Assembly (NCBI GenBank): GCA_038064495.1
Contig: JBBTSZ010000002.1
Span: 82,035-146,034 of the forward strand
From: Patescibacteria group bacterium
GTDB lineage: Bacteria > Patescibacteriota > Minisyncoccia > Phycocordibacterales > Phycocordibacteraceae
DNA length: 64,000 nt
Reading direction: 5' to 3'
A model generated the notes under the pieces. That model was not told where the DNA came from, did no database searches, and was given only the letters and a program-made list of their open reading frames with translations. Made by a program: the position numbers and the translations under genes. Below are positions 20,675-61,973 of the stretch, one piece after another. The number at the start of each line of letters is the position of its first letter. The stretch's first letter is position 1.

Positions 20675-20704
20675 AAAGCCCGGCGCGCATGCGCCGGGCT
20701 TTTC
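20675..20704. terminator. bidirectional terminator hairpin
   Basis: AAAGCCCGGCGC-GCAT-GCGCCGGGCTTT. Confidence 0.6.
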
Positions 20705-22150: not shown

Positions 22151-22167
22151 AGCGCTCCTTGCAATAG

Positions 22168-22196
22168 AAAAAACCGCCACGCAGGCGGTTTTTTCT
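22168..22196. terminator. bidirectional terminator (DUF305 gene / tmRNA 3-prime end)
   Basis: AAAAAACCGCC-ACGCA-GGCGGTTTTTT. Confidence 0.6.
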
Positions 22197-22209
22197 ATTG
22201 TTCTCTATC

Positions 22210-22618
22210 GGTGGAGGTGCGGGGGATTGAACCCCGGTCCGAATCTCTCTTTGAGAACGAGTCTACGACGCATAGTTAGCATTGAAGTTTCAGCAGAAGC
22301 ATAAGAACGCTAACAAAAACGCTTCTACCTAGTCCTTAGTTTTCAGTCGTTCGTGTAGGAGCACGAGAACCTATTCCGTAGAATATTCCGCCCAGCTCAT
22401 CCGCTACGAAAACCGGAGTGAGTGAACGTCGCTTTGGCGAAAGCGCGGGGCTTTTACGCGAAAGCGAACGCAAAGTCCTTGCTACCGAAGTATGGGGACT
22501 TTACGCTTGCAACAGTTGTGTTGGCAAGTTTAGGTGTATGCCAGATTTAGGTGGTGAGCATACTTCCACCGCGTCGCACGTTTCTCAAAGAACGAGACCG
22601 TCAAAGCCAGTCACCCCC
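22210..22618 (-). ncRNA. ssrA: tmRNA (SsrA)
   Basis: 5-prime GGGGGTGACTGGCTTTGACGG resembles canonical GGGGCUGAUUCUGGAUUCGACGG; 3-prime T-arm GGGGTTCAATCCCCC + acceptor CACCTCC-A-CC; 7-bp acceptor with G3:U70 alanine determinant; candidate tag ORF GSKDFAFAFA-stop (about 22454..22486). Confidence 0.85.
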
Positions 22619-25560: not shown

Positions 25561-25637
25561 GCATCCATAGCTCAGTTGGTTAGAGCACGGAGCTTATACC
25601 TCCGCGGTCCCTGGTTCGAGTCCAGGTGGATGCACCA
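25561..25637 (+). tRNA. tRNA-Ile (anticodon UAU)
   Basis: cloverleaf by hand: acceptor GCATCCA/TGGATGC, D-arm TAGCTCAGTTGGTTAGAGC, anticodon stem CGGAG/CTCCG loop CTTATAC, T-arm CCTGG-TTCGAGT-CCAGG, CCA encoded. Confidence 0.8.
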
Positions 25638-33982: not shown

Positions 33983-34741
33983 CTAATAACTGAGGGCAAG
34001 CAGGTGCACGTCTTTCGCTCCCGTATCGCGAAGTGCCTGTTCAGCTGCTCGTAGCGTCGCTCCCGTCGTTACGACATCGTCAATAAGGATATACGTAACA
34101 TGCGCATCAAGCGGACCGTTCGCTCGGAAGGCACCTTCCATGTTCACTAACCGCTCTGCTCGGTTGAGGCGCGTCTGGGGTTTAGTGTCCCGGACTCGCT
34201 CAAGCACGCCATACTTGATAGGTACCGGAAGGCTATTCTGTTTTTCAAATAACCGCTCTACTTGGTTGTATCCACGCTCTCGCTCTCGCAGGGCGGAAAG
34301 CGGAATTGGTAATAGAACATAGGAGTTTGTTTCAAAACCACTCTCGTCCTCAACCAACCCTTCAAGATAATCGTGAAGGACTTGAGCGAGTAACACTCGT
34401 GCTCGCTCACTATCCTTAAATTTCAGCTCAGTAATCAGTGCACGCACAAGACTATGACGGTAGGGGAGGAGTGCAGTTATGTGAGAAGAATCTACTGAAA
34501 CGATGCGTGGCGAGACCAATTGAGAAAGTTGCTCCAAGGTTGCTTTCTCAACCAAAGCCTCATGGCTCTTTGGTGGGAACACCAGACGAATAAGCTGTGT
34601 GAGTAGGAATCGGAGGACATCCATACCATTCATACTATCGCGTCGTCCCTGCGCCCGTACTTCTTGAGATGTGGGGTGATACAATGACGCTATGAGTTTA
34701 TTCGAGACACTCTTCGGCAAGAAGAAGAGCAAGAGCGTCAT
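33983..34741 (-). CDS. comFC: ComF family protein (ComFC, phosphoribosyltransferase domain)
   Basis: C-terminal PRTase motif LIDDVVTTGATL. Confidence 0.7.
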   Translation of the reverse strand: MTLLLFFLPKSVSNKLIASLYHPTSQEVRAQGRRDSMNGMDVLRFLLTQLIRLVFPPKSHEALVEKATLEQLSQLVSPRIVSVDSSHITALLPYRHSLVRALITELKFKDSERARVLLAQVLHDYLEGLVEDESGFETNSYVLLPIPLSALRERERGYNQVERLFEKQNSLPVPIKYGVLERVRDTKPQTRLNRAERLVNMEGAFRANGPLDAHVTYILIDDVVTTGATLRAAEQALRDTGAKDVHLLALSY

Positions 34742-35780
34742 CGGTGTTGATGTCGGTTCGTCATCACTGAAAGTCGTTCAAATTCGGGAGGAGGACGGTA
34801 CTGCGGTGCTTGAAACATATGGAGAACTTGCCCTCGGACCCTATGCAGGTGCAGAAGTGGGGCAGGCAACAAATCTTCCAGCTGCAAAGATTGCAGAAAC
34901 CCTCACTGACCTACTTCGTGAAGCTTCCGTCACTACCACAGAGGCAGGGGTCTCTATTCCGTTCTCTCGCTCCCTCCTCACTCTGGTAGAACTTCCGCGC
35001 AGAGACGATGCGAATGAACAAAAAACCGTTATTGAACTAGAAGCTCGCAAGTATATTCCCGTGCCGGTCTCTGAGGTCCAACTAGACTGGTTCATTTTGC
35101 CGGAGGCTTTACCTGAGAATGCCGAACCACCTCAAAAAGTGAAGGTACTTCTTGTTGCGGTGCATAATGACGAACTCGCACTTCTTGAAAACGTGGTGAA
35201 AGGAGCCGGTCTTGCTGCAAGTTTTTATGAAATAGAGATATTTAGCACGATTCGTTCCGTCGTGGATGAGCCCGTGAAGCCAGTACTCGTACTTGATATC
35301 GGAGCTTCTGCCACAAAAGTGTATGTTGTAGAACGAGGTGTGGTTGCACTTTCTCACAATATTCCCGAGGGAGGACAAGACGTTACACGCACCATTTCAA
35401 CCGCGCATAATCTTTCGATAAAGAAGGCTGAATCCCTCAAGAAAGAGCACGGGTTTCAGAATCAACCTGCTAATGGCTACACACTTGCAACTATTGAACT
35501 CGTTTTCTCACGTATTTTTCAAGAAGCGAAACGAGCTATTACTCAGTACGAAACCGCGCACCAAAAGACTATCTCTGAGATTATTCTCACCGGAGGTGGG
35601 GGAGTCACGAAAGAGCTGGTGACCTATGCACAGTCCTTCTTCTCCATTGACGTAAAAGTTGCCGATCCATTTGGTAAGACACAAGCACCTGAATTCATGC
35701 GCCCAGTACTTGCAGAAATTGGCCCGGAATTTGCGGTTGCGGTAGGACTTGCACTCCGCAAGCTCCAAGAGCTTGAGTAG
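34692..35780 (+). CDS. pilM: type IV pilus assembly protein PilM
   Basis: actin-like ATPase fold pattern, VIGVDVGSSSLKVV N-term. Confidence 0.8.
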   Translation: MSLFETLFGKKKSKSVIGVDVGSSSLKVVQIREEDGTAVLETYGELALGPYAGAEVGQATNLPAAKIAETLTDLLREASVTTTEAGVSIPFSRSLLTLVELPRRDDANEQKTVIELEARKYIPVPVSEVQLDWFILPEALPENAEPPQKVKVLLVAVHNDELALLENVVKGAGLAASFYEIEIFSTIRSVVDEPVKPVLVLDIGASATKVYVVERGVVALSHNIPEGGQDVTRTISTAHNLSIKKAESLKKEHGFQNQPANGYTLATIELVFSRIFQEAKRAITQYETAHQKTISEIILTGGGGVTKELVTYAQSFFSIDVKVADPFGKTQAPEFMRPVLAEIGPEFAVAVGLALRKLQELE

Positions 35781-35841: not shown

Positions 35842-36495
35842 GTGGCACTTCCTCCTACTATTCCGACATCGTTTGTACCAAAGATGCCTGTTTCGCCAAC
35901 TGCGCGCAGGAAATCTTCGGGTCCAAACCCATTTCTTACACTTGCTTCCGTTGTGCTTGCTATTTCCCTTCTCGGCGCTGCCGGCATGTTCGCCTACCAG
36001 TATTACCTTGAAGGCGTCGCAAAGAGCAAGGGAGCACAGTTAGTAAAGGCACAAAACGATATTGACCAAGCAACGGTAACCGGGTTCATTCGTTTGCGCG
36101 ATCGCTTTACCGTCTCACAACAAATATTAAGTAATCACGTGACTTTGTCAGCTTTTTTTGATGTTCTTGAATCACTCACCCTTGCAACGGTTAAGTTCTC
36201 TTCACTCAAAGTCACCCTATCTGAAAGTCATGTGGCAACCATAGAAATGAACGGTGTCGCAAGAAGTTTTAATGCACTCGCTGCACAGTCAAACGCTTTT
36301 TCAGATGAAAAACGCATTAAGCGTGCTATTTTCTCAGGGATCACGCTTGATCAAAAATCTGGGAACGTATCCTTCAGTTTGAAGGCAGAACTTGATCCTG
36401 CACTTATCGTCAATAATGCCAACCCTGTTGCGGGCACGGTACTGGTACCGCAAACACAACCACAAATCCCCCTTGCTACCTCCACCACACCATGA
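35842..36495 (+). CDS. pilN: PilN-like pilus assembly protein
   Basis: single TM then coiled coil; position after pilM. Confidence 0.6.
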   Translation: MALPPTIPTSFVPKMPVSPTARRKSSGPNPFLTLASVVLAISLLGAAGMFAYQYYLEGVAKSKGAQLVKAQNDIDQATVTGFIRLRDRFTVSQQILSNHVTLSAFFDVLESLTLATVKFSSLKVTLSESHVATIEMNGVARSFNALAAQSNAFSDEKRIKRAIFSGITLDQKSGNVSFSLKAELDPALIVNNANPVAGTVLVPQTQPQIPLATSTTP

Positions 36496-37055
36496 TTAAT
36501 CGACTCTTACCGGTTATAGTACTCATTATCGCGATTGCCATCTTCGTTGGATATACGAATCCGTTGTATACGCGAGAGATTCTCCCGCTCCAAGCGCAAG
36601 TTCGAGAGTATGATGGTGCACTTGCGGCAGCAGCTGACTTCAATAGAAAGGAGGCACAACTCGCGACCGAGCGAGCCGCTATTCCAGCAGAAAGCATTCA
36701 GAAGATTGAAACCTTCCTACCGGATGGCGTGGACAATGTGCAGTTGATTCTTGACTTGAATGCACTGGCGGCACGCTCAGGAGTACAGCTCTCAAACTTT
36801 GATGTTAAAGAAAATGGTGTTGTAGCTCAAAATGAGCCACAAAGTGGAGGCATTGCCCTTGAGCAGGGAGGTAAGCAAACAGACTCACTAGATCTTTCTG
36901 TAAAAGCAACGGCTTCGTATTCAGCATTTCGGACCTTCCTTGCGGGAGCCGAACAAAGCCTGCGTATTCTTGACGTGACTCAGCTTGATGTGAGCGATTC
37001 ACCGACCGGTGTTTACAGCTATGCTATTACTTTTAGAATCTATTGGCTCCACTAA
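36492..37055 (+). CDS. pilO: PilO-like pilus assembly protein
   Basis: N-term TM + coiled coil + alpha/beta domain; synteny. Confidence 0.55.
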   Translation: MINRLLPVIVLIIAIAIFVGYTNPLYTREILPLQAQVREYDGALAAAADFNRKEAQLATERAAIPAESIQKIETFLPDGVDNVQLILDLNALAARSGVQLSNFDVKENGVVAQNEPQSGGIALEQGGKQTDSLDLSVKATASYSAFRTFLAGAEQSLRILDVTQLDVSDSPTGVYSYAITFRIYWLH

Positions 37056-37059
37056 TTGT

Positions 37060-37344
37060 ATGAGTAAAAACACCATCATCTCCATCATCATCGGCGTCGC
37101 CATTTTGCTTGTCGCTGGCTACATGCTTTTTTTTCAGCAGCCAGCCTCCTCAGCTGTAACAGCAACCGAAGCTTCAAGTGAAGCCGAAGTGACGTTTGTT
37201 AACCTCGCCGCACAACTTGAACCCCTTGGATTTGATACGAGCATTCTTGCTATCCCTCGTTTCCTAGAACTTGTGGACATCCATACCATCGTTCTTCCTG
37301 AGGTAAGTGGTCGTAAAGACCCCTTTGCTCCACTTCCAAAATAA
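37060..37344 (+). CDS. small membrane-anchored protein (PilP-like position)
   Basis: MSKNTIISIIIGVAILLVAGY TM; synteny only. Confidence 0.4.
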   Translation: MSKNTIISIIIGVAILLVAGYMLFFQQPASSAVTATEASSEAEVTFVNLAAQLEPLGFDTSILAIPRFLELVDIHTIVLPEVSGRKDPFAPLPK

Positions 37345-37437
37345 ATAATTTATCCCGTGCAAACTATCGCACGAATACGCACTGAGGGAGTATCATACAT
37401 ACATGATGCCTGCGGTTAGAAATCGCACCACGAGTCT

Positions 37438-39216
37438 ATGAATATACTTTCTCTCCTTATTGAGAAGGGTCTCATTAAAGCTGAGGATGTAGCAGCAATT
37501 CAGGCTGAGGCTGAACAAAAGAAGCTTCCACTCGAAAGCGTACTTGAAAGTAAGGGTGTTACACGCGACGTACAACTCTCAACTGCAAGTGAGCACTATG
37601 GGATTCCATCTCGAGTGCTTCCGCAAAACAAAGATATTGAACAAGCGGCACTTGAGTTTATTCCTCAGGAATCAGCTGAACACTATCGGTTTGTGCCACT
37701 TGGCATTGTAGACGGGGCACTTGAAGTGGGTATTACTGACCCCGATAACATAGAGGCGCGTGACGCACTTCAATTTATCTCAACACGTGCGGGCATGCCC
37801 TATAAGTTGTTCCTTATTAGTGAAAATGACTTCTCACACGTGATTGAAGAGTATCAAAACCTCTCGGGAGTTGTGGGTGAAGCACTTTCAGAATTTGAAG
37901 GTTCAGCCGCTGAGTCTGAAGAGTCTAAGAAGATGGAGGCTGAGGTTGAGTCAGCAGCCATAGGTGCGCCAGCAGCGGTAGGTGCTGATGGAAAGATTAA
38001 AGCCGACTCGCCGGTAACAAAGATTGTCGCAACCGCCTTGCGATATGCGGTAGAGGGTGGTGCATCCGACATCCACATAGAACCATCTCCTGGAAAGACG
38101 CGCGTACGTTTCCGCATGGATGGTGAGTTACACACCTCACTCGAACTTCCGGCTAAAGTACATGCTGCCGTTGTGGCTCGTATTAAAATCATGGCGCAGC
38201 TTAGGCTTGATGAAAAACGTAAGCCACAGGACGGACGGTTCTCTTCAAAAGTAGATAATCGGCTCATAGACTTCCGTGTCTCCACATTTCCAACGCAACA
38301 CGGCGAGAAAGTGGTAATGCGTATTCTGGACCGCACCCGCTCGGTAGCAAATATTGAAGCCATTGGTTTTACCGAAGACCAGCTTGCCATGGTGAAAGAA
38401 ATATTGAAGGTACCGTACGGTATTGTGCTCATCTGTGGTCCAACTGGTTCAGGTAAGTCAACCACTCTCTTCGGTATGTTGTCGGAGATTGATAGTGAAA
38501 AACAAAACGTAGTTTCCATTGAAGACCCCGTTGAGTACGAGATTCCAGGTATCGCACAGTCGCAAGTACACCCAGAGATTGGTTATGACTTCGCAAACGG
38601 GCTCCGTTCCATTTTGCGTCAGGACCCCGACGTCATCATGGTTGGCGAGATTCGTGATAAAGAAACAGCCCAGCTTGCAATTCAGGCTGCGCTCACGGGT
38701 CACCTCGTGTTCTCTACGATTCACACCAACAACACCGCGGGCGTCATTCCACGCCTCATTGATATGGGCGTGGACCCGTATTTGATTGCACCAACTCTCG
38801 TGGCCGCCATCGGCCAGCGTCTGGTGCGTAAGCTCTGTCCAGGCGCTGGGCAGAAAATCGCGGTCACCGACAGTATCAAGGGTCTTCTTGAGCGAGAATT
38901 TGCGGACCTTCCTCCTGACGCAATGAAAAGGATACCTGCATTTGAGTCAATGTATCGTGCTCAGGCGACTCCAGACTGTCCAAATGGTACTCGTGGACGT
39001 ATTGGCGTGTTTGAGTTCATGCGCATGGATAAGGACCTAGAACACACGGTACTAACGAATCCCGTGGAAGAGGCGGTATACGCGGTTGCTCGTAAAAAGG
39101 GTATGTTTACGATGCGCGAGGATGCTATCATGAAAGCGCTGGCGGGGGAGATTCCGTTTGAAGAAGTGAATACGCTTGGCGGTGAATTGTTCCCCGAGGA
39201 AGAAGAATCAATCTAA
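37438..39216 (+). CDS. pilB: type IV pilus assembly ATPase PilB (GspE family)
   Basis: GSPII_E N domain, Walker A GPTGSGKST, Asp/His boxes, CxxC...CPxC-like zinc motif. Confidence 0.9.
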   Translation: MNILSLLIEKGLIKAEDVAAIQAEAEQKKLPLESVLESKGVTRDVQLSTASEHYGIPSRVLPQNKDIEQAALEFIPQESAEHYRFVPLGIVDGALEVGITDPDNIEARDALQFISTRAGMPYKLFLISENDFSHVIEEYQNLSGVVGEALSEFEGSAAESEESKKMEAEVESAAIGAPAAVGADGKIKADSPVTKIVATALRYAVEGGASDIHIEPSPGKTRVRFRMDGELHTSLELPAKVHAAVVARIKIMAQLRLDEKRKPQDGRFSSKVDNRLIDFRVSTFPTQHGEKVVMRILDRTRSVANIEAIGFTEDQLAMVKEILKVPYGIVLICGPTGSGKSTTLFGMLSEIDSEKQNVVSIEDPVEYEIPGIAQSQVHPEIGYDFANGLRSILRQDPDVIMVGEIRDKETAQLAIQAALTGHLVFSTIHTNNTAGVIPRLIDMGVDPYLIAPTLVAAIGQRLVRKLCPGAGQKIAVTDSIKGLLEREFADLPPDAMKRIPAFESMYRAQATPDCPNGTRGRIGVFEFMRMDKDLEHTVLTNPVEEAVYAVARKKGMFTMREDAIMKALAGEIPFEEVNTLGGELFPEEEESI

Positions 39217-39222
39217 CACTTT

Positions 39223-39606
39223 ATGGCTACGTACCGCTTATACCTTGTCGACGATGACCGCTTCTTACTGGATATGTATGCTGTTAAATTCAAGACAGCA
39301 GGTCATGAAGTAACTGCATTTCAAAATGGCGAAGAGTTACTGGAGTCTCTCAAGAAAGATCCAGCTCCTGACGCACTTCTTCTGGATATCGTTATGCCAA
39401 ATCTCGACGGATTTGAGATTCTTGAGCGTATCCGGAAAGACGCTCTTGCCCAAACGACAAAAGTTATCGTGCTCTCAAACCAAGGTCAACAATCAGATAT
39501 CGAGCGCGCACAAAAGCTTGGTGCTGCAGGGTATATTATTAAAGCATCCGCAATTCCAAGTGAAGTATTTGCAGAGACTATTCGCATTATTGAAGCAAAA
39601 GCATGA
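39223..39606 (+). CDS. single-domain response regulator (PilH-like position)
   Basis: receiver domain DD..D..T..K pattern. Confidence 0.75.
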   Translation: MATYRLYLVDDDRFLLDMYAVKFKTAGHEVTAFQNGEELLESLKKDPAPDALLLDIVMPNLDGFEILERIRKDALAQTTKVIVLSNQGQQSDIERAQKLGAAGYIIKASAIPSEVFAETIRIIEAKA

Positions 39607-40667
39607 GCACCTCTTCCAAAAGCGTAAAACCACTTCTCTCAACTGTTGTTGCAGAGGGTGGGTCTGACCTCCACCTGTCGGTAGGGAGCCACCCCATTAT
39701 TCGCGTGTCTGGTTCGCTCGTGCCTTTGGTGCAGGAGCCTATTTTGACACTGGCTGACACGGAAGCAATGCTGAAAGAAATCCTTCCTGAAGGGAGGTGG
39801 GAAGTGTTTGTGCGTGACCAGGCAGTGGACTTTTCGTATGCTCACGACGACAATAACCGTTTTCGTATCAACGGGTACATTGTGCAGGGAGCAGTCACTG
39901 TTGCCATGCGTCTCATCCCACACGCAATTCGTACCTTTACTGATTTGAATCTTCCGCCGGTACTTGAAATCTTTACTCAGAAGACCCAGGGCTTCTTCCT
40001 CGTGGTAGGTCCTGTGGGACAAGGAAAGTCAACGACGCTTGCTACCATCATTGACCGTATTAACGAGACGCGCGCCGAGCATATCGTCACGATTGAAGAT
40101 CCGGTTGAGTACCTCTTTGAACAAAAGAAGTCCCTCATTCATCAGCGTGAAGTACACATTGATACCCCTGACTTCCATGCGGCTCTCCAGTCAGCCTTTC
40201 GTGAGGATGTGAACGTCATTATGGTGGGTGAAATGCGTGATCAAGAGACCATTTCAAGTGCGGTGACTGCTGCTGAGACAGGACACCTTGTGCTCTCTAC
40301 CCTGCACACGAACAATGCGGCCCAGACCATTGACCGTATTATTGATATGTTCCCACCGAATCAACAGAGCCAGGTACGCGTACAGCTTGCCGGTTCTCTT
40401 GCGGGAATCTTCTCTCAACGACTTGTGCCACGAATTGCCGGTGGTCTCATCCCTGCATACGAATTGTTAATCAACAACAGCGCCATCGCAAACCTTATTC
40501 GTGAAGGACGCACGCATGAAATTTCCACAGTCGTACAAACGAGTTCTCAAGAAGGCATGATTGACATGGACCGTTCTCTCGCAGAGCTCGTTCGTCGCGG
40601 TGAAGTCACGATTGAACATGCATACGAACGTTCGGTAGACCCCAAGACCTTTGAGCGTTACCTCTAA
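39603..40667 (+). CDS. pilT: twitching motility ATPase PilT
   Basis: Walker A GPVGQGKST, 354 aa, AIRNLIRE motif. Confidence 0.9.
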   Translation: MSTSSKSVKPLLSTVVAEGGSDLHLSVGSHPIIRVSGSLVPLVQEPILTLADTEAMLKEILPEGRWEVFVRDQAVDFSYAHDDNNRFRINGYIVQGAVTVAMRLIPHAIRTFTDLNLPPVLEIFTQKTQGFFLVVGPVGQGKSTTLATIIDRINETRAEHIVTIEDPVEYLFEQKKSLIHQREVHIDTPDFHAALQSAFREDVNVIMVGEMRDQETISSAVTAAETGHLVLSTLHTNNAAQTIDRIIDMFPPNQQSQVRVQLAGSLAGIFSQRLVPRIAGGLIPAYELLINNSAIANLIREGRTHEISTVVQTSSQEGMIDMDRSLAELVRRGEVTIEHAYERSVDPKTFERYL

Positions 40668-40670
40668 CCC

Positions 40671-41879
40671 ATGCTATTCAAATACAACGCACTGGATACA
40701 GACGGACACGAGCGGCAAGGAAGTGTCGAGGCACTCTCTATGGATGTTGCAGTTTCAACCCTGCAACGACGGAACCTCATCGTTTCCTCCATAGAGCCCA
40801 TGGAGAAGAAGTCAAAACTGGAAATAGAGTTTAGTTTTCTTAAAGGAGTCTCAAACAAGGAAATCGTTATTCTTTCACGCCAGATTGCAACGCTGTTTGA
40901 AGCCCAAGTCTCGGCACTTCGTGTATTTCGTCTCCTTTCTGCAGAAGTTGAGAACAAGTATTTAAGTGAGATATTGACGCAAGTCTCAGACGATCTCCAG
41001 GGAGGTAGCCCTATCTCAAAAGCGCTCTCACGCCACCCGAAAGCTTTTCAAGCCTTTTACGTAAATATGGTAAAGGCAGGTGAGGAGTCAGGAAAACTCT
41101 CTGAAACCTTCGGCTATCTTGCCGACTATCTTGACCGTAACTACGAGGTAGCAAGCAAAGCCCAGAGTGCCCTTATTTATCCAGCGTTCGTTATTGGCGT
41201 CTTTATTACGGTCATGAGCTTGATGCTCACGCTCGTTATCCCGAAGATTAGTGCTATTCTCATCGACTCAGGCCAAAAGATTCCGCTCTATACTCAAATT
41301 GTAGTGAGTCTCTCTGACTTCATAGTCCATTATGGTGGATTTATCCTTATTGCTTTTGTTATCTTTGGCTTCTACTGCTATCGAGCAATGCAAACAGAGT
41401 CAGGTCGTCTCATGTTCGACAGTATCAAACTAGATACACCCTACATTGGAGACCTGTATCAAAAACTCTATCTTTCTCGTATTTCGGATAACTTTGCCAC
41501 GATGCTTGTATCTGGCGTGCCGGTAGTTGAAGCAGTAGAAATTACCGCAGCCGTTGTTGACAGCCCTATTTATGAAGGAATTTTGCGACAGGTGGGAGAA
41601 GACGTGAAAGGAGGAGCATCTATCTCTGACGCGCTTGCTCGGCACAAGGAGATTCCCGGTATTATGAGTGCCATGGTTCGTGTGGGGGAGGAAACGGGAG
41701 AGCTTGGTAAAATCCTTGCAACACTCGCTCACTTCTACCAGCGTGAAGTAACAAACGCCGTGGACACACTCGTGGACTTGATTGAACCACTCATGATTGT
41801 CATTCTCGGACTTGGTGTTGGTATCTTGCTTGCGGCAGTTCTCGTGCCTATCTATAATCTCGCCGGTTCTATCTCCTAA
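40671..41879 (+). CDS. pilC: type IV pilus platform protein PilC (GspF family)
   Basis: two T2SSF repeats, 3 TM. Confidence 0.9.
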   Translation: MLFKYNALDTDGHERQGSVEALSMDVAVSTLQRRNLIVSSIEPMEKKSKLEIEFSFLKGVSNKEIVILSRQIATLFEAQVSALRVFRLLSAEVENKYLSEILTQVSDDLQGGSPISKALSRHPKAFQAFYVNMVKAGEESGKLSETFGYLADYLDRNYEVASKAQSALIYPAFVIGVFITVMSLMLTLVIPKISAILIDSGQKIPLYTQIVVSLSDFIVHYGGFILIAFVIFGFYCYRAMQTESGRLMFDSIKLDTPYIGDLYQKLYLSRISDNFATMLVSGVPVVEAVEITAAVVDSPIYEGILRQVGEDVKGGASISDALARHKEIPGIMSAMVRVGEETGELGKILATLAHFYQREVTNAVDTLVDLIEPLMIVILGLGVGILLAAVLVPIYNLAGSIS

Positions 41880-41889
41880 CGAAGGCGCG

Positions 41890-41936
41890 CTGGGTATTTT
41901 TCTGCGTGTTATCCACACGCAGAAAAATACCCAGCA
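41890..41936 (+). terminator. long 19-bp hairpin (terminator/attenuator) between pilC and pilins
   Basis: CTGGGTATTTTTCTGCGTG-TTATCCAC-ACGCAGAAAAATACCCAG. Confidence 0.5.
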
Positions 41937-42001
41937 GTTTCTCTCGTACAATGAGACATAGCGGATATTTACTCGTAACCCGCATCCATACAATCGATTA
42001 T

Positions 42002-42424
42002 ATGAATTTCGTATCTACAAGCGCGCGACAGGGCCAGAAGGGTTTCACCCTCATTGAACTCCTCGTCGTTATCGCTATCATCGGCATTCTCTCGTCGGTC
42101 GTGCTTGCCTCTCTCAACACAGCTCGAAACAAGGGTGCTGATGCGGCAATCAAGGCAGACATTGACAGTGCACGTGCTCAAGCAGAACTGTTCTACGATA
42201 CTGCACAGACCTACTTGAACGTTTGTACCACAGCGAACACCGGTATTCTAAACATGAAGACGGGTGCATCATCAGCTGGCTCTGCAACGGTTACGTGTCT
42301 CGACAGTGCAACAGCATGGGCTATGTCAGCTCAGCTTAAAGCTAATACGGCACAGTACTGGTGCGCAGACTCAACGGGTACTACCACCATTCGTTCTGCA
42401 GTCATCTCAACGACAAACTGCTAA
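42002..42424 (+). CDS. type IV major pilin 1
   Basis: leader MNFVSTSARQGQKG then FTLIELLVVIAIIGIL (class III signal / N-methylation motif). Confidence 0.85.
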   Translation: MNFVSTSARQGQKGFTLIELLVVIAIIGILSSVVLASLNTARNKGADAAIKADIDSARAQAELFYDTAQTYLNVCTTANTGILNMKTGASSAGSATVTCLDSATAWAMSAQLKANTAQYWCADSTGTTTIRSAVISTTNC

Positions 42425-42445
42425 TACCGTAGTCTAAGGTTCAAT

Positions 42446-42471
42446 CAAAAACCGCCTTCGGGCGGTTTTTG
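42446..42471 (+). terminator. terminator after pilin 1
   Basis: AAAACCGCC-TTCG-GGCGGTTTTT. Confidence 0.6.
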
Positions 42472-42551
42472 TATCCACGGGGATACCTTTATTGTGAGCG
42501 AGGTGCAAGTATACTGAAAGCATGCGTTATTTCATCACTGCTACTACTTGT

Positions 42552-43091
42552 ATGAATCCTCTTGTATCTCAGAAAACTAGACGTGGTTTCACCCTCATTG
42601 AACTCCTCGTCGTTATCGCTATCATCGGCATACTTTCAGCCGTTGTTCTTGGCTCACTCGCCCTTGGTCGTCAAAAAGCCTACGATGCGGCTATAAAGTC
42701 AGATGTACACACCATCCAGTCACAAATGGAAATCTATTTCTCAAATAACAACACCTACGGCACCACGCTTGCCGCAAACGCAAACCCGACGAACAGCGTT
42801 CCTGGTCTCGGAACCTCTGCGTATATCGTAGACGCTAGCATTAATGGTGCACTCAAAGCAGCTCTCGCTCAAACAGCTCCCGTCGTACTGAACAATGCTT
42901 CTTGTGGTGGCGCCACGTCAGGAGGCGGTACCTGGGCAACAGGCGTAAATGGTGCCACCTGGGCCGTGAATATATCTCTCAAAGCGAACAAGTGTCAGTA
43001 TTGGTGTGTTGACTCCACCGGCTCCTCTAAAACCTACACCAATAGTTTCCCGGCAATCGGTGGTGGTGGCGCCGCAGCTACTTGCCCGTAA
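42552..43091 (+). CDS. type IV major pilin 2
   Basis: leader MNPLVSQKTRRG then FTLIELLVVIAIIGIL. Confidence 0.85.
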   Translation: MNPLVSQKTRRGFTLIELLVVIAIIGILSAVVLGSLALGRQKAYDAAIKSDVHTIQSQMEIYFSNNNTYGTTLAANANPTNSVPGLGTSAYIVDASINGALKAALAQTAPVVLNNASCGGATSGGGTWATGVNGATWAVNISLKANKCQYWCVDSTGSSKTYTNSFPAIGGGGAAATCP

Positions 43092-43101
43092 TCTTTTAAG
43101 C

Positions 43102-43581
43102 ATGCCCGATTATTTTAGTCGCCGTATGAGTAGAACAGGTAAGGGTTTCACCCTCATTGAACTCCTCGTCGTTATCGCTATCATCGGCATTCTCTCGTCG
43201 GTCGTGCTTGCTTCACTTAATTCTGCTCGTACCAAGGCGCGAGATTCAGCTATTCTTGCAAACATGGACGCCGTCTCCCCCCAAGCAGTTCTCTTTGAAG
43301 ACAGTAACAATACCTACGGAACGAGTGTGAATGACTGTACGGCTGGGGTATTTAGCGATACTAAGATTCAGTCAGTCTTTACCGCTATTGACGCAGCGAA
43401 TAACAACGCGCCAAGGGAATGTTATGCGAATGATACAAGCTACGCACTTGCCGTAACGCGCGCAAGTTCTGCCGACTACACACCCGCAACCGTATATTGG
43501 TGCGCAGACTCTACCGGAAAGAAGTGCGGTATTGATGATATTTCAGGCCTTGCAACTTCAGGACTTTGCGGATGTCCATAA
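43102..43581 (+). CDS. type IV major pilin 3
   Basis: leader ...MSRTGKG then FTLIELLVVIAIIGIL; alternative start 43126. Confidence 0.85.
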   Translation: MPDYFSRRMSRTGKGFTLIELLVVIAIIGILSSVVLASLNSARTKARDSAILANMDAVSPQAVLFEDSNNTYGTSVNDCTAGVFSDTKIQSVFTAIDAANNNAPRECYANDTSYALAVTRASSADYTPATVYWCADSTGKKCGIDDISGLATSGLCGCP

Positions 43582-43582
43582 C

Positions 43583-44344
43583 ATGACGAGTCTGTCTGCT
43601 GTGCTCGCCATACTCTCCTTTATTGTTGGAGGTTTGTTTGCAAGCTTTGCGGGAGTAATCAGTGAACGACTGAATACAGGTGAGTCATGGAGCCGAGGGC
43701 GCTCACGCTGTAACTCCTGCAGTGAAGTCTTGTCAGTTGTTGACCTCATCCCCGTTCTTTCTTGGATTACGACACGTGGGGCTTGCAGAAGATGTCGTGC
43801 CCGCGTACCGTACCTCTATCCACTCACGGAACTTGTTGTTGGGACACTCTTCTTCGCAACCTCCACAGTGTACGGACTTTCCTACGAATCAATCACCCTC
43901 GCAGCTTTTTATTTTGTGCTTACCATTATCGTTTTGTATGACCTCCGACACACTGTGGTGCCATTTCCACTCTCCTTGCTCCTTATCGGCCTCGCGCTCT
44001 TGTTTACCATCGTGAATTCACCAGACCTCCATACACTTGGAGTCAGCTGCGTTACCGCTGGAATTATAGCTCTTGGATTCTTTCTCATGCACGTGCTGTC
44101 CGGTGGCCGTCTTATGGGACTCGGCGACGCACCCATTGCACTCGCACTTTCGCTTGTGGCGGGCTCTGTTGCCTTCACTGGTCTCCTCTTTTCGTTTTGG
44201 ATTGGTGCAGCTATCGGCATAGGCATCTTGGCGACTGCGGAAAGAGGGCATAGAATGGGAATTGAGGTACCGTTCGTACCTTTCCTTGCGGCAGGATATT
44301 TGCTTGCTTTTTTTACCCAATGGAACCTTTTCAGTTTGCTGTAG
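43583..44344 (+). CDS. pilD: prepilin peptidase PilD (A24 family)
   Basis: CNSC...CRRC zinc finger, multiple TM, catalytic Asp-containing loops. Confidence 0.85.
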   Translation: MTSLSAVLAILSFIVGGLFASFAGVISERLNTGESWSRGRSRCNSCSEVLSVVDLIPVLSWITTRGACRRCRARVPYLYPLTELVVGTLFFATSTVYGLSYESITLAAFYFVLTIIVLYDLRHTVVPFPLSLLLIGLALLFTIVNSPDLHTLGVSCVTAGIIALGFFLMHVLSGGRLMGLGDAPIALALSLVAGSVAFTGLLFSFWIGAAIGIGILATAERGHRMGIEVPFVPFLAAGYLLAFFTQWNLFSLL

Positions 44345-45021
44345 CTCACGAGCGTTCGGTACACGTACGTGGCTTCACTCTTGTTGAGATGATTGTCGTC
44401 CTCGGCATCATTGGCATAATCACCGCTGTTGTACTCAATAATCAGCAAGATTTTAATAAATCATTGGTCATCACCGATACTGGGTACACGATTGCTCTCT
44501 CACTAAGGCAGGTACAGACATTTGGGCTTTCAAGTAGAACATTTACCGGACAAACAACCGCTAACTATGGTTACGGTGCTCATTTTGAAGCTGCAAAACC
44601 AATATCCTATACAACTTTTGCCGATGTAAATAAGAGCACCTACAGCGTCCCGTCCTACTGTCCAGTCGGAACTGCTGGTAGCCCTGATGCAAAGCCAGGG
44701 AACTGCAGGTTTGATACATCGGCAGAGACACTTCAAAATTATAAGATTGGACGTGGTCTTAAGGTCGCTGCACTCTGTGGTCGCGACACGGGAGGTGTAC
44801 TCAGGTGTTCAACGGACCAAACAAACCCAATCACCAGTATTGATATTGTGTTTCTTCGTCCGAATACCGACACCGTAGTGACTGCGAGCAGGTCAGGAGC
44901 GGGCGATATCCAGCTCAAGGATTTAAGTATTACACTTTCTACTCCTGATAATGCAGCTCAACGCCTCGTTTGTGTTTCATATGCAGGACAGATTTCCGTG
45001 ACCCCTACCGCTTGCCCATGA
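44320..45021 (+). CDS. minor pilin / pseudopilin
   Basis: leader ..HVRG then FTLVEMIVVLGIIGII. Confidence 0.75.
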   Translation: MEPFQFAVAHERSVHVRGFTLVEMIVVLGIIGIITAVVLNNQQDFNKSLVITDTGYTIALSLRQVQTFGLSSRTFTGQTTANYGYGAHFEAAKPISYTTFADVNKSTYSVPSYCPVGTAGSPDAKPGNCRFDTSAETLQNYKIGRGLKVAALCGRDTGGVLRCSTDQTNPITSIDIVFLRPNTDTVVTASRSGAGDIQLKDLSITLSTPDNAAQRLVCVSYAGQISVTPTACP

Positions 45022-45029
45022 TTTACCGT

Positions 45030-45623
45030 ATGAAATATCTTTCTCATCCAGAGTCTAAAACGCTTCGAGCGTTTACGCTCGTGGAAATGATAGTGTCTCT
45101 GGGACTTTTCTCAGTGGTTATGTTGGTTGCGACAAGTGCCTACCTCACACTCATCAGTCTTGATAGACAGGCTCACGCAACGAATCAAATCGTCGATAAC
45201 CTCTCGTTTGCAGTAGATACCATGGTTCGTGGTATTCGCACGGGAACTAACTTCCAATGTTTGAACGGTAGTCCAGATGCAGACGGTAATTCAACTTCTG
45301 GAGCCTGTACTTCATTCAAATATACGGATACGAACCTCACCACTCCCGTTACCTATATTCTAAAAAGTAATGGCACTATCGGTAGATGCGAAGGAAACGG
45401 AGTGTGTATCGACAGCACGGCGTCATCACTTACCGATCCACAAATAACCATTCAAACACTCGCGTTTTACGTACGAGGAGCAGGTACCGTTACGGCAGGA
45501 GTGCGAGACCAACAACCCCAAGTATTGTTTGTAGTGAAGGGGACGATGCCAAGCGATTCTAAAGGAGGGACGGTTCCATTTGCTATCCAGGAAGGAGCAA
45601 CCCAACGACTCATCGACTTATAA
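45030..45623 (+). CDS. minor pilin / pseudopilin
   Basis: ..KTLRA then FTLVEMIVSLGLFSVV. Confidence 0.75.
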   Translation: MKYLSHPESKTLRAFTLVEMIVSLGLFSVVMLVATSAYLTLISLDRQAHATNQIVDNLSFAVDTMVRGIRTGTNFQCLNGSPDADGNSTSGACTSFKYTDTNLTTPVTYILKSNGTIGRCEGNGVCIDSTASSLTDPQITIQTLAFYVRGAGTVTAGVRDQQPQVLFVVKGTMPSDSKGGTVPFAIQEGATQRLIDL

Positions 45624-45626
45624 CCT

Positions 45627-46204
45627 ATGAAAAGACTTGATTTACTTGTAAAAGGAACGCCAACCGTTACGGCTTTTACTTTGGTTGAAACATTGGTGGC
45701 TATCATGGTCCTTACTATTTGTGTGGTGGGGCCGTTTCAAGTCGCCCAGGGTGTACTTGCGACTGCTTACGTCTCTCGTGATAAACTCATCGCCTCTGCT
45801 ATTGCTCAGGAAGGTATGGAATATCTCCGTGCTATTCGTGATAGTAACTATTTGTACAATATACATACTAGCTCGACGCTCAGCTGGCTCTCTGGATTTG
45901 ACGGAAATAATGGACCAAATTGTTATTCAAACACGTGCGTTATCGATACCTCCCAATACCCAGCAGCGGTACCATTTCAAGCAGGAAACTCTATTATCGC
46001 CTGTAGTGACTCAACGTGTTCAACACGACCACTCTATCTTTCATCAAGCAATATATATAATCAGCAGACGAGTGGGGTGAGAACCAGATTCACGCGAACC
46101 ATAAAATTGGTTCAAATAAGTGCGACCGAGACACAGGTAACCGTAACGGTATCGTGGGTCGGTCACGCAAACTACAGCGTGACCTTGGTTGAGAATATCC
46201 AAAA

Positions 46205-46214
<10 letters not shown>
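45627..46214 (+). CDS. minor pilin / pseudopilin
   Basis: ..PTVTA then FTLVETLVAIMVLTI. Confidence 0.75.
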
Positions 46215-48683
<2,469 letters not shown>

Positions 48684-48702
48684 GTGTGATAGATTCCTAT
48701 AT

Positions 48703-48996
48703 ATGGCATCAGCCGAAGACGTACAGAAGCTTGCGGCCCTCTCAAGACTTTCCATACCTGAAGCAGACCTCGCTCATACCGCGAAGGAGTTTGATGCAAT
48801 TCTTGCCTATGTGGGTAAACTTGAGCAACTAACGCTTCCCGCAAAGTACGCCGGGACGGCTGGAGCTGTCCGAAATGTCTTTCGCATTGACGGCGAGCCT
48901 CATGCAAAAGGGAAACACACCAAAGCTCTCGTAGCACAATTTCCAGATAAGGAAGGGAATTATCTCAAAGTGAAGCAAATATTGTCTCATGACTAA
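48703..48996 (+). CDS. gatC: Asp/Glu-tRNA amidotransferase subunit C
   Basis: 97 aa; KLA.LSRL...E..L..IL.YV..L. Confidence 0.8.
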   Translation: MASAEDVQKLAALSRLSIPEADLAHTAKEFDAILAYVGKLEQLTLPAKYAGTAGAVRNVFRIDGEPHAKGKHTKALVAQFPDKEGNYLKVKQILSHD

Positions 48997-50428
48997 ACCA
49001 GCTAACGAGCTCAGCATGGTCGAAGCAGGAAAGATGCTTCGCGACCACACTCTTACGGTCCAAGAATTATGGGACGCCTGTAGTAGTAGAGCGCATGCAC
49101 GGAACCCCGAACTCAATGCCTACCTTGAGCTCTTCCCGGCTGATGGGCCCGCGATACAGGCAGCTCAAAAGAGAATAGACACTGAGCGAGACACCGCTCC
49201 CGCACTCTGTGGGATTCCGCTTGCGATAAAAGACAATATCTTGATAGAGGGACATCTTGCGAGTGCTGCAAGCCAGATTCTTTCAAATTACACGGCGACG
49301 TACGACGCCACCGTTATTACTAAACTCAAGGCTGATGGCGCGCTCTTTCTTGGGAGAGCGAATATGGATGAGTTTGCTATGGGTTCATCAACTGAAAACT
49401 CGGCATTCGGTCCTTCAAAAAATCCACACGATACCTCGAGAGTCCCGGGAGGTTCGTCCGGTGGTTCCGCGAGCGCAGTTGCAGGACACCTTGCGCTCGC
49501 CGCTCTTGGTACGGACACGGGAGGCTCCATTCGTCAGCCAGCAGCTCACTGCGGACTCGTAGGGCTGAAACCGACCTACGGGCGTGTGTCGCGTAGCGGC
49601 GCAATTGCACTCGGTTCTTCACTTGATCAAATTGGCCCACTTACAAAGTCGGTTGCGGACGCGCAACTACTCTATGATGTACTCAAAGGGCACGATCCTC
49701 TAGATGCAACGACGATAACGGATGCTACCTACCCAGCACCAAAGATAAAAGAAAAGCTCATCATTGGTGTTCCCTATGACCTTCTTTCAGATGGTATTGA
49801 TGAAGATGTGCGAGCAACCTTTGATGCTACGCTTGCACGTCTTGCAGAAGCGGGACATACCCTTGTTTCGGTATCTCTTCCAACCAGTGAGTACGCACTC
49901 CCGACGTACTACGTCATTATGCCGGCAGAAGCCTCAACCAATCTTGCTCGGTATGACGGTATGCGTTACGGAAAAAGCACAACCGGAAAGAATTTGCTCG
50001 ACGAATATCTTGGTGCGCGTACCGAAGGGTTTGGTCCCGAGACAATCAGGCGTATTCTACTTGGCACCTTTGTTCTTTCTTCAGGTTACATTGATGCGTA
50101 CTATCGAAAAGCAGACGCAGCACGTGAAGTACTTACAAACGAGTATGACGAAGCATTCAAGACCTGTGACGTGATTGCATTTCCAACAACTCCAGCACCA
50201 GCATTTGCCTTTGGTGAAAAAACAGGAAACCCTGTTTCCATGTACCTTGAGGACGTGTTCACCGTGACCGCATGCTTAACCGGCATGCCTGCCATTTCAG
50301 TCCCGATGGGTATGGTTGAACGTGGTGGAAAACAGTTACCTATTGGTATGCATTTCACCGCACCAAAAGGGGCGGAGTCTATTCTCTTTACGGCAGGCGC
50401 ACTCATTACAGGCGAGGCGTTATACTAG
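48989..50428 (+). CDS. gatA: Asp/Glu-tRNA amidotransferase subunit A
   Basis: amidase signature GGSSGGSASAVA, Ser-cisSer-Lys triad region. Confidence 0.9.
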   Translation: MTKPANELSMVEAGKMLRDHTLTVQELWDACSSRAHARNPELNAYLELFPADGPAIQAAQKRIDTERDTAPALCGIPLAIKDNILIEGHLASAASQILSNYTATYDATVITKLKADGALFLGRANMDEFAMGSSTENSAFGPSKNPHDTSRVPGGSSGGSASAVAGHLALAALGTDTGGSIRQPAAHCGLVGLKPTYGRVSRSGAIALGSSLDQIGPLTKSVADAQLLYDVLKGHDPLDATTITDATYPAPKIKEKLIIGVPYDLLSDGIDEDVRATFDATLARLAEAGHTLVSVSLPTSEYALPTYYVIMPAEASTNLARYDGMRYGKSTTGKNLLDEYLGARTEGFGPETIRRILLGTFVLSSGYIDAYYRKADAAREVLTNEYDEAFKTCDVIAFPTTPAPAFAFGEKTGNPVSMYLEDVFTVTACLTGMPAISVPMGMVERGGKQLPIGMHFTAPKGAESILFTAGALITGEALY

Positions 50429-51277: not shown

Positions 51278-51287
51278 CAAGCAAAGA

Positions 51288-51318
51288 AAAACACTCGTCT
51301 CGTACGAGTGTTTTTCTT
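51288..51318 (+). terminator. terminator after tRNA
   Basis: AAACACTCGT-CTCGT-ACGAGTGTTTTTC. Confidence 0.55.
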
Positions 51319-51385
51319 TACGATGCGAGGAAGTAAGAAATTTTTCATACACTTCGTTTTGAGAAAAACAAAACGCATCCAAGTG

Positions 51386-60738: not shown

Positions 60739-61674
60739 ATGAAATATTCACCACTTATTACCGCTACACTCAGTCTCGTACTTATTCTTGGAATAGCAGT
60801 ACCTGCATTTGCCGAAGACAGAGGCGGAGACGATGCAACAAGCATCAATACCACTAACACCATTCAGATTAAGGTTGACGACGACAATACAGATTCAGAT
60901 CTTCACGATAAGCGCGAACGTCGAGATGGATTGCTAGCCTCTACCACTCTCCGTATTCGCAGTGAGCGCGAAGAGGAACGCGAGCGCGAACACGCAAGCT
61001 CAACGGAAGAGCGTATCCAAAAGAGAGTTGAAAAGGTTCAGGAACACGCCGGAGATGCTATTGATAAGCGCATTGAGAGTCTACGAAAGCTCTCTGAGCG
61101 CCTAGCGCATATGAAACTCCTTTCAGCCGATACCCTCGCAAGCATCAAGGCTTCTCTTGACGCTGAGATTAAAAGCTTGATTGAGCTCAAGGCAAAGATT
61201 GGAAGCGATACTTCAACTTCAACCGTGAAAGCTGATGCTTCTGAAATCACGAAGGCACACCGCGTGTACCTCCTCGTTGAACCAAAGGCACGTATTGCAG
61301 CCTCTGCATCACGCATCAATGCGGTGGTAACACAGATGCAACTTCTCGTTACGAAGCTCGAGGCACGCATTGCTGCGGCACAGACTGCTGGCGCGGACGT
61401 TATCGAAGCACAAGCTGCTCTTACTGACCTCAAGGCAAAGATTGCTGACGCCAAGGTACAGGCTGATGCAGCCGTAGCGCTTACCGTTAACCTCCAGCCT
61501 GACAACGGTGACGCAACCGTTAAAGCTTCTAACCTTGCAGCCCTCAAGGATGCGCGTACGAAGCTAGAGCTCGCACACAAGGATCTTGCAGCGGCTCGGG
61601 AAGACGCTGGAAAAATCTTCGGTGTCGTAAAGGGTAAGGAAGGAAAGGGCGAGGGAGTAGAACACTCTAACTAA
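60739..61674 (+). CDS. secreted alpha-helical coiled-coil hypothetical protein
   Basis: signal peptide ..AVPAFAEDR; Ala/Lys/Glu-rich heptad-like repeats. Confidence 0.5.
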   Translation: MKYSPLITATLSLVLILGIAVPAFAEDRGGDDATSINTTNTIQIKVDDDNTDSDLHDKRERRDGLLASTTLRIRSEREEEREREHASSTEERIQKRVEKVQEHAGDAIDKRIESLRKLSERLAHMKLLSADTLASIKASLDAEIKSLIELKAKIGSDTSTSTVKADASEITKAHRVYLLVEPKARIAASASRINAVVTQMQLLVTKLEARIAAAQTAGADVIEAQAALTDLKAKIADAKVQADAAVALTVNLQPDNGDATVKASNLAALKDARTKLELAHKDLAAAREDAGKIFGVVKGKEGKGEGVEHSN

Positions 61675-61973
61675 TCGTTATCCACACCCGTGGTTGGAGC
61701 CACTCCAACCACATCCCTCCGGGTGTATAGTATTCGGACTAGCTCCTGACTTTGTCAGGAGCTAGTACTTTATATAGGGAGCTAGTTGCAAAGTCCCCAC
61801 ATGCTTCGTTACGGTTCGGTTTCGCTTCCTCACCGTACTTCAAGTACGCCTGCATTCGGAACCTTCCCACGCCTTGCCTCTGGAGCCTTTTCAACCAGCT
61901 CACAATCCAGTTGAACCCGCGGGCTTTTTCGAGTATTGTGCCTACATCAAGCGGCTGTTAGCCGCTTCGATAT

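Follow-up and report, generated by a model that had tools for sequence, protein, structure and literature searches.

In a 64,000-nucleotide (nt) stretch of DNA, referred to as the window in the following, we analysed three tandem pilin genes, pil1, pil2 and pil3, whose 5′ coding ends are identical to the nucleotide, while their C-terminal domains are widely divergent. The pilin region (41890-43581) lies on the + strand within the type IV pilus locus of an uncultured Paceibacteria bacterium (Parcubacteria, candidate phyla radiation; CPR) of Hainich groundwater. From alignments of the three genes and comparisons with related genomes, we conclude that the identical 5′ ends probably arose by intragenomic short-tract gene conversion among tandem copies of old paralogues. 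This makes the locus a case of ordinary multigene-family evolution, not of a dedicated switching device. Its distinctive trait is that conversion appears confined to the segment encoding the invariant N-terminus, and that this pattern seems to recur in many Paceibacteria genomes. The analysis also yielded what we consider its most useful by-product, a box with the sequence TTATCCACA that appears, from its placement, to be a conserved promoter element of the first pilin gene in about 100 related genomes.

Type IV pili are the main predicted means of host attachment and DNA uptake in CPR bacteria (Patescibacteria), and we know of almost nothing on how these pili are regulated or diversified. A clean and repeated case of short-tract gene conversion in such tiny genomes implies that homologous recombination is active there. 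It also implies that pilin trees built from N-terminal nucleotides group genes by genome and not by orthology, and that identical 5′ ends in pilin arrays should not, on their own, be annotated as a sign of switching. The promoter element, consisting of TTATCCACA, a spacer of about 29 nt and a TATAAT-like box, would provide a testable handle for studying regulation in bacteria of which very few are in culture.

Identical 5′ ends in three divergent pilin genes

The three genes are encoded as follows; all of them match Pfam N_methyl and TIGR02532.

42002-42424, + strand: pil1, prepilin of 140 amino acids (aa) with a 14-aa leader
42552-43091, + strand: pil2, prepilin of 179 aa; another possible ATG lies at 42522
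43126-43581, + strand: pil3, prepilin of 151 aa

An earlier reading of the sequence alone, referred to below as the sequence-only reading, had described three tandem pilins with shared 5′ ends, like mature N-termini and divergent C-terminal domains, and all of this is borne out by alignment: the genes are three complete open reading frames (ORFs) with exact common blocks, FTLIELLVVIAIIGILS follows the cleavage-site glycine in each of them, and the C-terminal domains are just 25-32% identical at the amino-acid level. The repeat that it had put at about 68 nt is present as well, although its length needs correction. Between pil1 (42038-42108) and pil3 (43141-43211) it extends over 71 nt without a mismatch, and what had been called a close copy in pil2 shares an exact 47-nt core with the other two genes (42041-42087 in pil1, 42585-42631 in pil2 and 43144-43190 in pil3). 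In pil1, the 71-nt block covers residues K-2 to A+22.

The nucleotide identity of these blocks exceeds what conservation of the protein accounts for. At identical residues, the longest runs of identical codons comprise 23 codons between pil1 and pil3, 16 between pil1 and pil2, and 15 between pil2 and pil3, and permuting the order of same and different codons rarely reproduces runs of this length (p < 1e-5, 2e-4 and 5e-4, respectively). The boundary is sharp in the pil1/pil3 pair, where the 23 identical codons are followed by four identical residues with a different codon at each. Beyond the block, just 40-44% of the identical residues share a codon; for pil1 and pil3, the count is 16 of 40, which is about chance for the codon usage of this genome (Fisher p = 3e-5 for codon identity inside versus outside the block). 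It is this combination of long identical-codon runs with synonymous sites at chance level elsewhere that sets the blocks apart from mere amino-acid conservation. Divergence along the three genes is thus far from uniform, as the sequence-only reading had anticipated. A second, shorter conserved patch, YWC(A/V)DSTG...C, is found in all pilin copies and is not homogenised at the DNA level.

Comparison with related genomes

For comparison, 160 loci around PilC homologues were fetched from genome and metagenome collections; the closest PilC relatives all stem from metagenome-assembled genomes of Parcubacteria/Paceibacteria. The contrast between orthologues and paralogues rests on the two close relatives among them, L001 and L002, whose PilC proteins are 81% and 78% identical to that of the window, whereas the statistics on paralogue pairs cover 115 non-redundant relatives and refer to 51 nt, which encode 17 residues.

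The closest relative, L001, possesses the same three pilins in the same order. Their C-terminal domains pair one to one with those of the window, with identities of 57, 39 and 54% for pil1, pil2 and pil3 against L001 pilins 1, 2 and 3, compared to 20-32% between paralogues. As each window pilin has a separate orthologue in L001, the triplication predates the split between the two lineages. The 5′ ends follow a different grouping. Over the first 69 nt, pil1 and pil3 of the window differ from each other at a single position, whereas 8 and 10 positions separate them from their respective L001 orthologues. The window trio is split from the L001 trio at four synonymous sites (Ile4 ATT/ATC, Val8 GTC/GTG, Val9 GTT/GTC and Ala11 GCT/GCC), and L001 pilins 1 and 2 have an exact 53-nt block of their own in common. 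The 5′ tract consequently groups by genome and the gene body by orthologue, which is the defining pattern of concerted evolution, and the boundary between the tract and the saturated synonymous divergence of the body is sharp. In L002, no orthologues of pil2 and pil3 are present.

Similar tracts are found more widely. Of 73 paralogue pairs within genomes, 13 show no difference across the 51 nt; between genomes, identity was observed in just 1 of 14,292 pairs that encode the same 17 residues, with a mean difference of 10.7 out of 51 nt. In at least 11 further Paceibacteria genomes, paralogues whose C-terminal domains are only 24-40% identical share exact 5′ runs of 51-113 nt. The number of tandem pilin copies varies among the relatives, with one copy in 74 loci, two in 31, three in 6 and four in 4, and a few relatives contain recent duplicates, whose paralogous C-terminal domains are still 100% (L017) or 68% (L100) identical.

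We propose the following scenario. The genes pil1-3 would be old paralogues encoding major-type pilins, whose surface-exposed C-terminal domains diverge quickly, while the cleavage site and the hydrophobic N-terminal helix are held near-invariant in the protein, because all pilins have to pass the same PilD/PilC/PilB machinery. This constraint on the protein would keep the DNA alike enough for homologous recombination, and repeated short-tract conversion between the tandem copies would wipe out the remaining synonymous differences, leaving the 47-nt and 71-nt blocks. Their identity would then be a by-product of a loop between constraint and recombination and not a device; as far as the alignments indicate, recombination homogenises the conserved part of the pilins and does not shuffle the variable part. 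As a plausible side effect, occasional unequal crossing-over between the direct repeats may add or remove pilin copies, which would account for the one to four tandem copies seen in relatives. Such copy-number variation fits a birth-and-death turnover over evolutionary time, unlike a reversible programmed switch.

Several points weigh against this scenario or limit its reach. Most within-genome paralogue pairs (52 of 73) differ at three or more of the 51 sites; since most tandem pairs elsewhere are not homogenised, conversion is episodic, and an adaptive role is no more than possible. The contrast between orthologues and paralogues is anchored by just two close relatives (with PilC identities of 81% and 78%), and all genomes used are short-read metagenome assemblies. 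Furthermore, shared codon bias within genomes inflates the similarity of pairs somewhat, although it cannot yield the genome-specific pattern at the four synonymous sites. On the side of expression, we infer which pilin is the major subunit from features of the sequence, and the hairpin upstream of pil1, described below, has no clean U-tract, unlike the usual terminators of this genome.

Alternative explanations

The sequence-only reading had seen in this arrangement a possible basis for recombinational pilin switching. On this account, the 5′ blocks would be dedicated recombination sites that place other bodies behind the pil1 promoter and thereby bring about phase or antigenic variation, either by deletion and duplication between direct repeats or by cassette exchange following DNA uptake. 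With 47-71 nt, the direct repeats are long enough for RecA-type recombination, they flank every pilin body, and the strong conserved promoter is predicted at pil1 only. The variation from one to four copies among relatives and the fast turnover of pilin bodies, with L002 lacking orthologues of pil2 and pil3, would be in line with such a mechanism. But recombination between direct repeats deletes DNA and is irreversible, all three genes are complete and translatable, with a start codon and a leader peptide, and gene order and orthology are preserved between the window and L001. Nor are the usual components of a switch in evidence: searches of the 64-kb window with the pilins (tblastn and blastn) returned no further or truncated copies that could serve as silent cassettes, neither of its strands contains a G-quadruplex (G4) motif (G3+N1-7 x4), no invertase or other recombinase domain was found among the locus proteins, and no pilin segment is inverted, all copies being direct repeats on the + strand.

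Public data point in the same direction. Exact-protein look-ups placed each pilin on four contigs, which were merged into a single location whose neighbouring genes are mostly shared; all three proteins thus occur in four assemblies, and the look-up gave no place with different neighbours. The one of these four contigs that was read is identical to the window, and the exact 47-mer, with which strain variants or recombinants were sought in the JGI metagenome collection, had no match there; consensus assemblies of this kind cannot exclude rare variants. We regard programmed switching as unsupported and rather improbable. What holds of the original suggestion is recombination itself, which is seen in the within-genome concert of the 5′ block.

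The blocks could also be maintained by selection on the DNA or RNA itself, for instance on membrane-targeting codons, messenger RNA (mRNA) structure or an internal promoter, without any recombination. It is true that no part of a pilin is more conserved than the one encoded by the block, and a promoter-like sequence, TTGAAC-16-TATCAT, does lie inside each copy of it. Across genomes, however, sequences for the same 17 residues differ on average at 10.7 of 51 nt, with the single identical pair among 14,292 noted above, and all L001 copies have fixed other codons at the four synonymous sites, so that we give this explanation very little credence. It appears just as implausible that the genes were duplicated in tandem recently and then diverged very fast everywhere except at the 5′ end: recent duplicates do exist in this family, as in L017 and L100, but each window pilin has its own orthologue in L001, which makes the duplication older than the split, and the synonymous sites outside the block are saturated (40-44% codon identity). 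Least credible of all is an assembly artefact by which a short-read assembler merged similar k-mers of the three genes, for although the source is a metagenome assembly with a coverage of about 9x, the flanks of the copies differ, so that they do not form bubbles that an assembler pops, the identical three proteins were obtained in four assemblies, and the pattern recurs in at least 11 genomes of unrelated studies.

Comparison with known pilin systems

Gene conversion as the origin of the blocks invites comparison with pilin families in which recombination or multiple subunits are well established. In Neisseria, pilE/pilS likewise form a pilin family with non-reciprocal recombination (gene conversion) between copies. 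There, conversion affects the variable region, draws on silent, promoterless cassettes with truncated 5′ ends, and depends on a G4-forming sequence upstream of pilE. Here, by contrast, the copies are complete and the conserved region is converted, with neither a G4 motif nor a silent copy found in the window. The tfpQ-tfpI system of Moraxella bovis and Moraxella lacunata resembles the present locus in that alternative C-terminal bodies share an N-terminal coding segment. It relies on an invertible segment and the site-specific invertase Piv, whereas here the copies are direct and on one strand, and no recombinase was found in the locus.

Two further systems combine several major pilins. In the monoderm Streptococcus sanguinis, which lacks an outer-membrane secretin, pilE1 and pilE2 are complete tandem genes for major pilins with near-identical N-terminal parts. 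Both loci have, in a bacterium lacking an outer-membrane secretin, adjacent complete major-pilin paralogues with near-identical N-terminal parts within the pilus cluster, but PilE1 and PilE2 are recent duplicates that are alike over their whole length, while in the present locus just 47-71 nt are identical and the rest is 25-32% identical in protein. Thermus, with PilA4 and PilA5 (6xxd, 6xxe, 8qqj), shares with this locus the coexistence of several major-type pilins with a single set of PilB, PilT, PilC and PilD. Its two major pilins reportedly use one machinery to form wide and narrow pili; different filaments serve DNA uptake on the one hand and adhesion or motility on the other in the Thermus model. 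A scheme of this kind is plausible by analogy as a functional model for the present locus. The likeness concerns sequence and gene set; the Thermus pilin genes are not arranged as a tandem array with nucleotide-identical 5′ ends. Paceibacteria clusters with multiple or tandem genes for pilin signal peptides have been reported previously (PMC9763046).

The box upstream of the first pilin

The predicted promoter of pil1 consists of two elements.

41909-41917, + strand: TTATCCACA box in the centre of a hairpin, conserved upstream element of the first-pilin promoter
41947-41952, + strand: TACAAT, putative -10 hexamer of pil1, 29 nt after the box

The sequence CGTACAAT is the same in the window, L001 and L002. 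More generally, in the window together with the first 80 loci (1.1 Mb in total), the pilin strand contains the motif TTATCC[AC]CA 64 times, where 8.6 occurrences are expected, and in 46 of these cases the first pilin follows within 300 nt. About eight matches to the variant TTATCCCCA were discounted, since they fall inside the coding end of PilC (LIPIY). Among 122 non-redundant loci, exact TTATCCACA is found upstream of the first pilin in 58, against an expectation of 0.17, and it precedes later pilins in just 2 of 84 cases. With at most one mismatch, the box is present in 115 of the 122 loci, and in 97 of them it is accompanied by a correctly placed -10-like hexamer. Positions T4, C5, C6, C8 and A9 of the box are near-invariant across the relatives.

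The distance between the box and the hexamer (TATAAT, TACAAT or TATACT) is remarkably constant, with 28-32 nt in 48 of 59 cases and a mode of 29 nt; in 8 more it is 38-40 nt, longer by one helical turn. No conserved -35 element was found in this spacer in the relatives. Given this fixed spacing and the absence of a conserved -35, we read the box as a putative site for an activator-type protein that binds the helix on a fixed face. Correctly spaced copies elsewhere in the fetched loci lie nearly all before other pilins or at truncated contig ends just past pilC. The possibility that TTATCCACA is a general promoter element or part of an origin cluster was rejected, as matches with at most one mismatch occur in the window at chance level (12 versus 11.9 expected). 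In the literature, we found no paper that ties TTATCCACA relevantly to pilin promoters or to CPR bacteria.

The box is a 9/9 match to the classical DnaA-box consensus, TTWTNCACA, and one of its common variants in relatives, TTGTCCACA, equals the actinobacterial form of the DnaA box. If TTATCCACA were a genuine DnaA box, the replication initiator DnaA, which belongs to the small set of DNA-binding regulators that these reduced genomes retain, would directly control the principal pilin gene across Paceibacteria, acting upstream of the -10 hexamer at a helically phased distance of about 29 or 40 nt. Such control would couple the formation of pili, and hence host attachment or DNA uptake, to replication or to nucleotide status; in the present genome, the perfect palindrome around the box would add a layer of control that depends on supercoiling or transcription. 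The pilin box differs from known DnaA boxes in that it is single, placed at a fixed, helically phased distance from a -10 hexamer and not clustered at an origin or a dnaA promoter, and in that its position 5 is invariant, whereas this position is free in the classical consensus. Neither the window nor the fetched loci contain a dnaA gene (RDHTTV signature), and no origin is located there; Pfam assigns the large window ORFs to SecY, an RNase J-like beta-CASP protein, a GatA amidase, a CHASE4 histidine kinase, FtsH, RecG, malic enzyme and CTP synthase, and none to DnaA. On balance, we consider direct control by DnaA doubtful, if worth keeping in mind.

The window contains a second exact copy of TTATCCACA, in an intergenic region within 61678-61766. 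It is followed at a distance of 39 nt by TATAGT (61726-61731) and then by a perfect 13-bp hairpin (61738-61766), and no convincing ORF or Rfam family is found in this region before the tRNA-Gln gene at 61974. The arrangement may be another promoter of this type, or else belong to a small RNA missing from the annotation.

Two observations concern the sequence that follows the promoter. Within the predicted pil1 leader, TAGCGGATAnTTACTCGTAACCCGCA (41960-41985) is shared with L001 (~7690-7715) and in part with L002, and could form a small GCGG/CCGC stem. Another subgroup of relatives has a different conserved leader, ACGTTTTTGGTCTGTCGAAG.

The hairpin between pilC and pil1

The sequence-only reading had also noted a long hairpin of 19 bp upstream of pil1. 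The structure is present, with a slightly longer stem and coordinates shifted by one position.

41889-41935, + strand: perfect hairpin with a 21-bp stem and a 5-nt loop, beginning 9 nt past the pilC stop codon

For the surrounding 141 nt, the predicted fold energy is -50.6 kcal/mol (z = -7.5). The hairpin tail, AGTTTCTCTC, passes a simple terminator scan, but its A and T runs sit inside the stem and there is no clean U-tract. The usual gene-end hairpins of this genome consist of an A-tract, a GC stem and a T-tract (22162-22200, 51283-51319, 13512-13545, 15608-15639 and 20675-20702), a layout that should make them bidirectional terminators; because its A/T runs lie within the stem, the hairpin behind pilC is atypical in comparison. 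Its arm does not occur elsewhere in the window, which means that it is not a repeated element.

The structure is not conserved either. In L001, just a 5-bp stem (CGTGT/ACACG) with the same loop is retained, and in L002 there is none, while the corresponding intergenic region contains an unrelated long hairpin in about 10 of 68 relatives. The hairpin would accordingly represent a recent, lineage-specific palindrome built around the conserved box, straddling the pil1 promoter box at the 3′ end of the pilC transcript. With the transcription start of pil1 predicted near 41959, it would lie outside the pil1 mRNA and at the 3′ end of any pilC transcript, and judging from this position it would most likely serve the upstream operon as a terminator or to stabilise its 3′ end.

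Hairpins next to the box were also observed in two other loci. In L051 (~8320-8390), the 3′ arm of a perfect 31-bp palindrome holds TTATCCACA, which results in a second, inverted copy of the box, and in L023 (~2960-3010), which belongs to the 39-nt spacing class, a 16-bp hairpin is located between the box and the -10 hexamer.

Expression of the three pilins

Downstream of the pil1 promoter, two further elements bear on expression; the first is the terminator that the sequence-only reading had placed after pil1.

42446-42469, + strand: intrinsic terminator after pil1, identified by its fold, AAAAACCGCC-TTCG-GGCGGTTTTT (A5-CCGCC-TTCG-GGCGG-T5)
42470-42478 and 42509-42514, + strand: possible weak pil2 promoter, read from the sequence, with the degenerate box GTATCCACG in a 6-bp hairpin, a spacer of 30 nt and TATACT

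The terminator is present in L001 as well, between pilins 1 and 2, where CAAAAACCGCCTTCGGGCGGTTTTTGT (42445-42471 in the window) is identical at 27 of 27 nt between diverged flanks. The pil1 gene would thus constitute a separate transcription unit, which starts from the TTATCCACA box, about 29 nt and TACAAT, continues through a predicted leader of about 43 nt that is partly conserved in L001 and L002, and ends at the conserved terminator. Given the conservation of promoter, leader and terminator, pil1 is probably strongly and separately expressed as a monocistronic gene. We further suggest that it is probably the principal major pilin, a status that we infer from its size, its position between pilC and pilD and its predicted promoter and terminator.

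A second unit, driven by a weaker promoter, would comprise the other two pilins, pilD and the minor pilins. The candidate promoter upstream of pil2 is uncertain, as the last base of GTATCCACG departs from the near-invariant A9. Between pil2 and pil3, the gap of 34 nt appears to leave no room for a box promoter of pil3's own; together with pilD, which abuts or overlaps the end of pil3, this short gap suggests that pil2 and pil3 share an operon with pilD and the minor pilins. That pil1 is expressed differently from the other two pilins, in line with the differential expression proposed by the sequence-only reading, is plausible on these grounds, but the source of the difference would be the layout of promoters and terminator and not the shared 5′ block.

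The type IV pilus locus and its proteins

The pilin genes are embedded in a complete type IV pilus locus with the gene order pilM, two small ORFs, pilB, response regulator, pilT, pilC, pil1-3, pilD, four ORFs and ligA. Besides the pilins, it comprises the following genes.

34692-35780, + strand: pilM (Pfam PilM_2, E=3e-42)
35842-36495, + strand: ORF after pilM, possibly pilN-like (no Pfam match)
36492-37055, + strand: ORF, possibly pilO-like (PilO match weak, E=0.009, under the cutoff)
37438-39216, + strand: pilB ATPase (Pfam T2SSE and MshEN)
39223-39606, + strand: receiver-only response regulator (Pfam Response_reg)
39603-40667, + strand: pilT ATPase (Pfam T2SSE)
40671-41879, + strand: pilC platform protein (Pfam T2SSF)
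43535 (public gene call) or ATG 43583 to 44344, + strand: pilD prepilin peptidase (Pfam A24_N_bact and Peptidase_A24)
44320-46660, + strand: four ORFs 3′ of pilD, three of them with prepilin-like N-termini

The locus encodes a single set of pilB, pilT, pilC and pilD, with pil1-3 between pilC and pilD. The prepilin-like N-termini downstream of pilD (GFTLVEM at 44371, AFTLVEM at 45069 and AFTLVET at 45672) mark the respective ORFs as likely minor pilins. Positions 36552-49091 of the window are 100% identical to a contig of ENA ERZ1292619, which derives from the 0.1-µm fraction of Hainich groundwater (H41) and has the coverage of about 9x mentioned above. Judging from the coordinates on record, this 397-kb contig would reach its end near window position 33346, and the window would then derive from another, longer assembly of this organism.

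The classification of pil1-3 as pilins is supported by several lines of evidence. Each of them has a short basic leader that ends in K/R-G, followed after the cleavage site by FTLIELLVVIAIIGILS, and thus the features of a class III signal peptide: Gly(-1), Phe(+1), Glu(+5) and then a hydrophobic stretch of about 20 residues. Their matches to Pfam N_methyl (E 4e-10 to 3e-8) and to TIGR02532 all pass the cutoffs, and the machinery is encoded alongside, with pilM, pilB, pilT and pilC on the 5′ side and pilD directly on the 3′ side. The mature proteins comprise 126-167 residues, and all copies have the cysteines expected near the C-terminus of pilins, within the YWC(A/V)DSTG...C patch. In a sequence search of solved structures, Thermus thermophilus PilA4 (6xxd) aligns with residues 15-136 of pil1, which is nearly its full length (phmmer, E 1e-6), and PilA5 matches pil1 likewise. 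For pil3, PilA4 is the nearest of the solved structures in sequence (E 2e-8), and for both pil1 and pil2 it is the best match that extends beyond the N-terminal helix; geopilin fragments, which are among the nearest solved structures too, match the N-terminal helix only.

With C-terminal identities of 39-57% between pilin orthologues of the window and L001, compared to 81% for PilC, the exposed part of the pilins appears to evolve very fast, which would fit a diversifying pressure from hosts or phages.

Other observations in the window

Three features outside the pilus locus deserve brief mention. At 60739-61674, the window encodes a 311-aa protein of secreted appearance, with an N-terminal signal-like helix and a long Glu/Arg/Ala-rich region that is probably a coiled coil; it has no Pfam match. 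An Rfam scan of the whole window gave no hits in the pilus locus and elsewhere only tRNAs and a transfer-messenger RNA (tmRNA) gene, located at 22209-22618 on the - strand (RF00023, 105 bits). Finally, a tRNA-Ile gene with the anticodon TAT (UAU) at 25561-25637 suggests that AUA codons are read directly and not via a lysidine-modified CAU tRNA.

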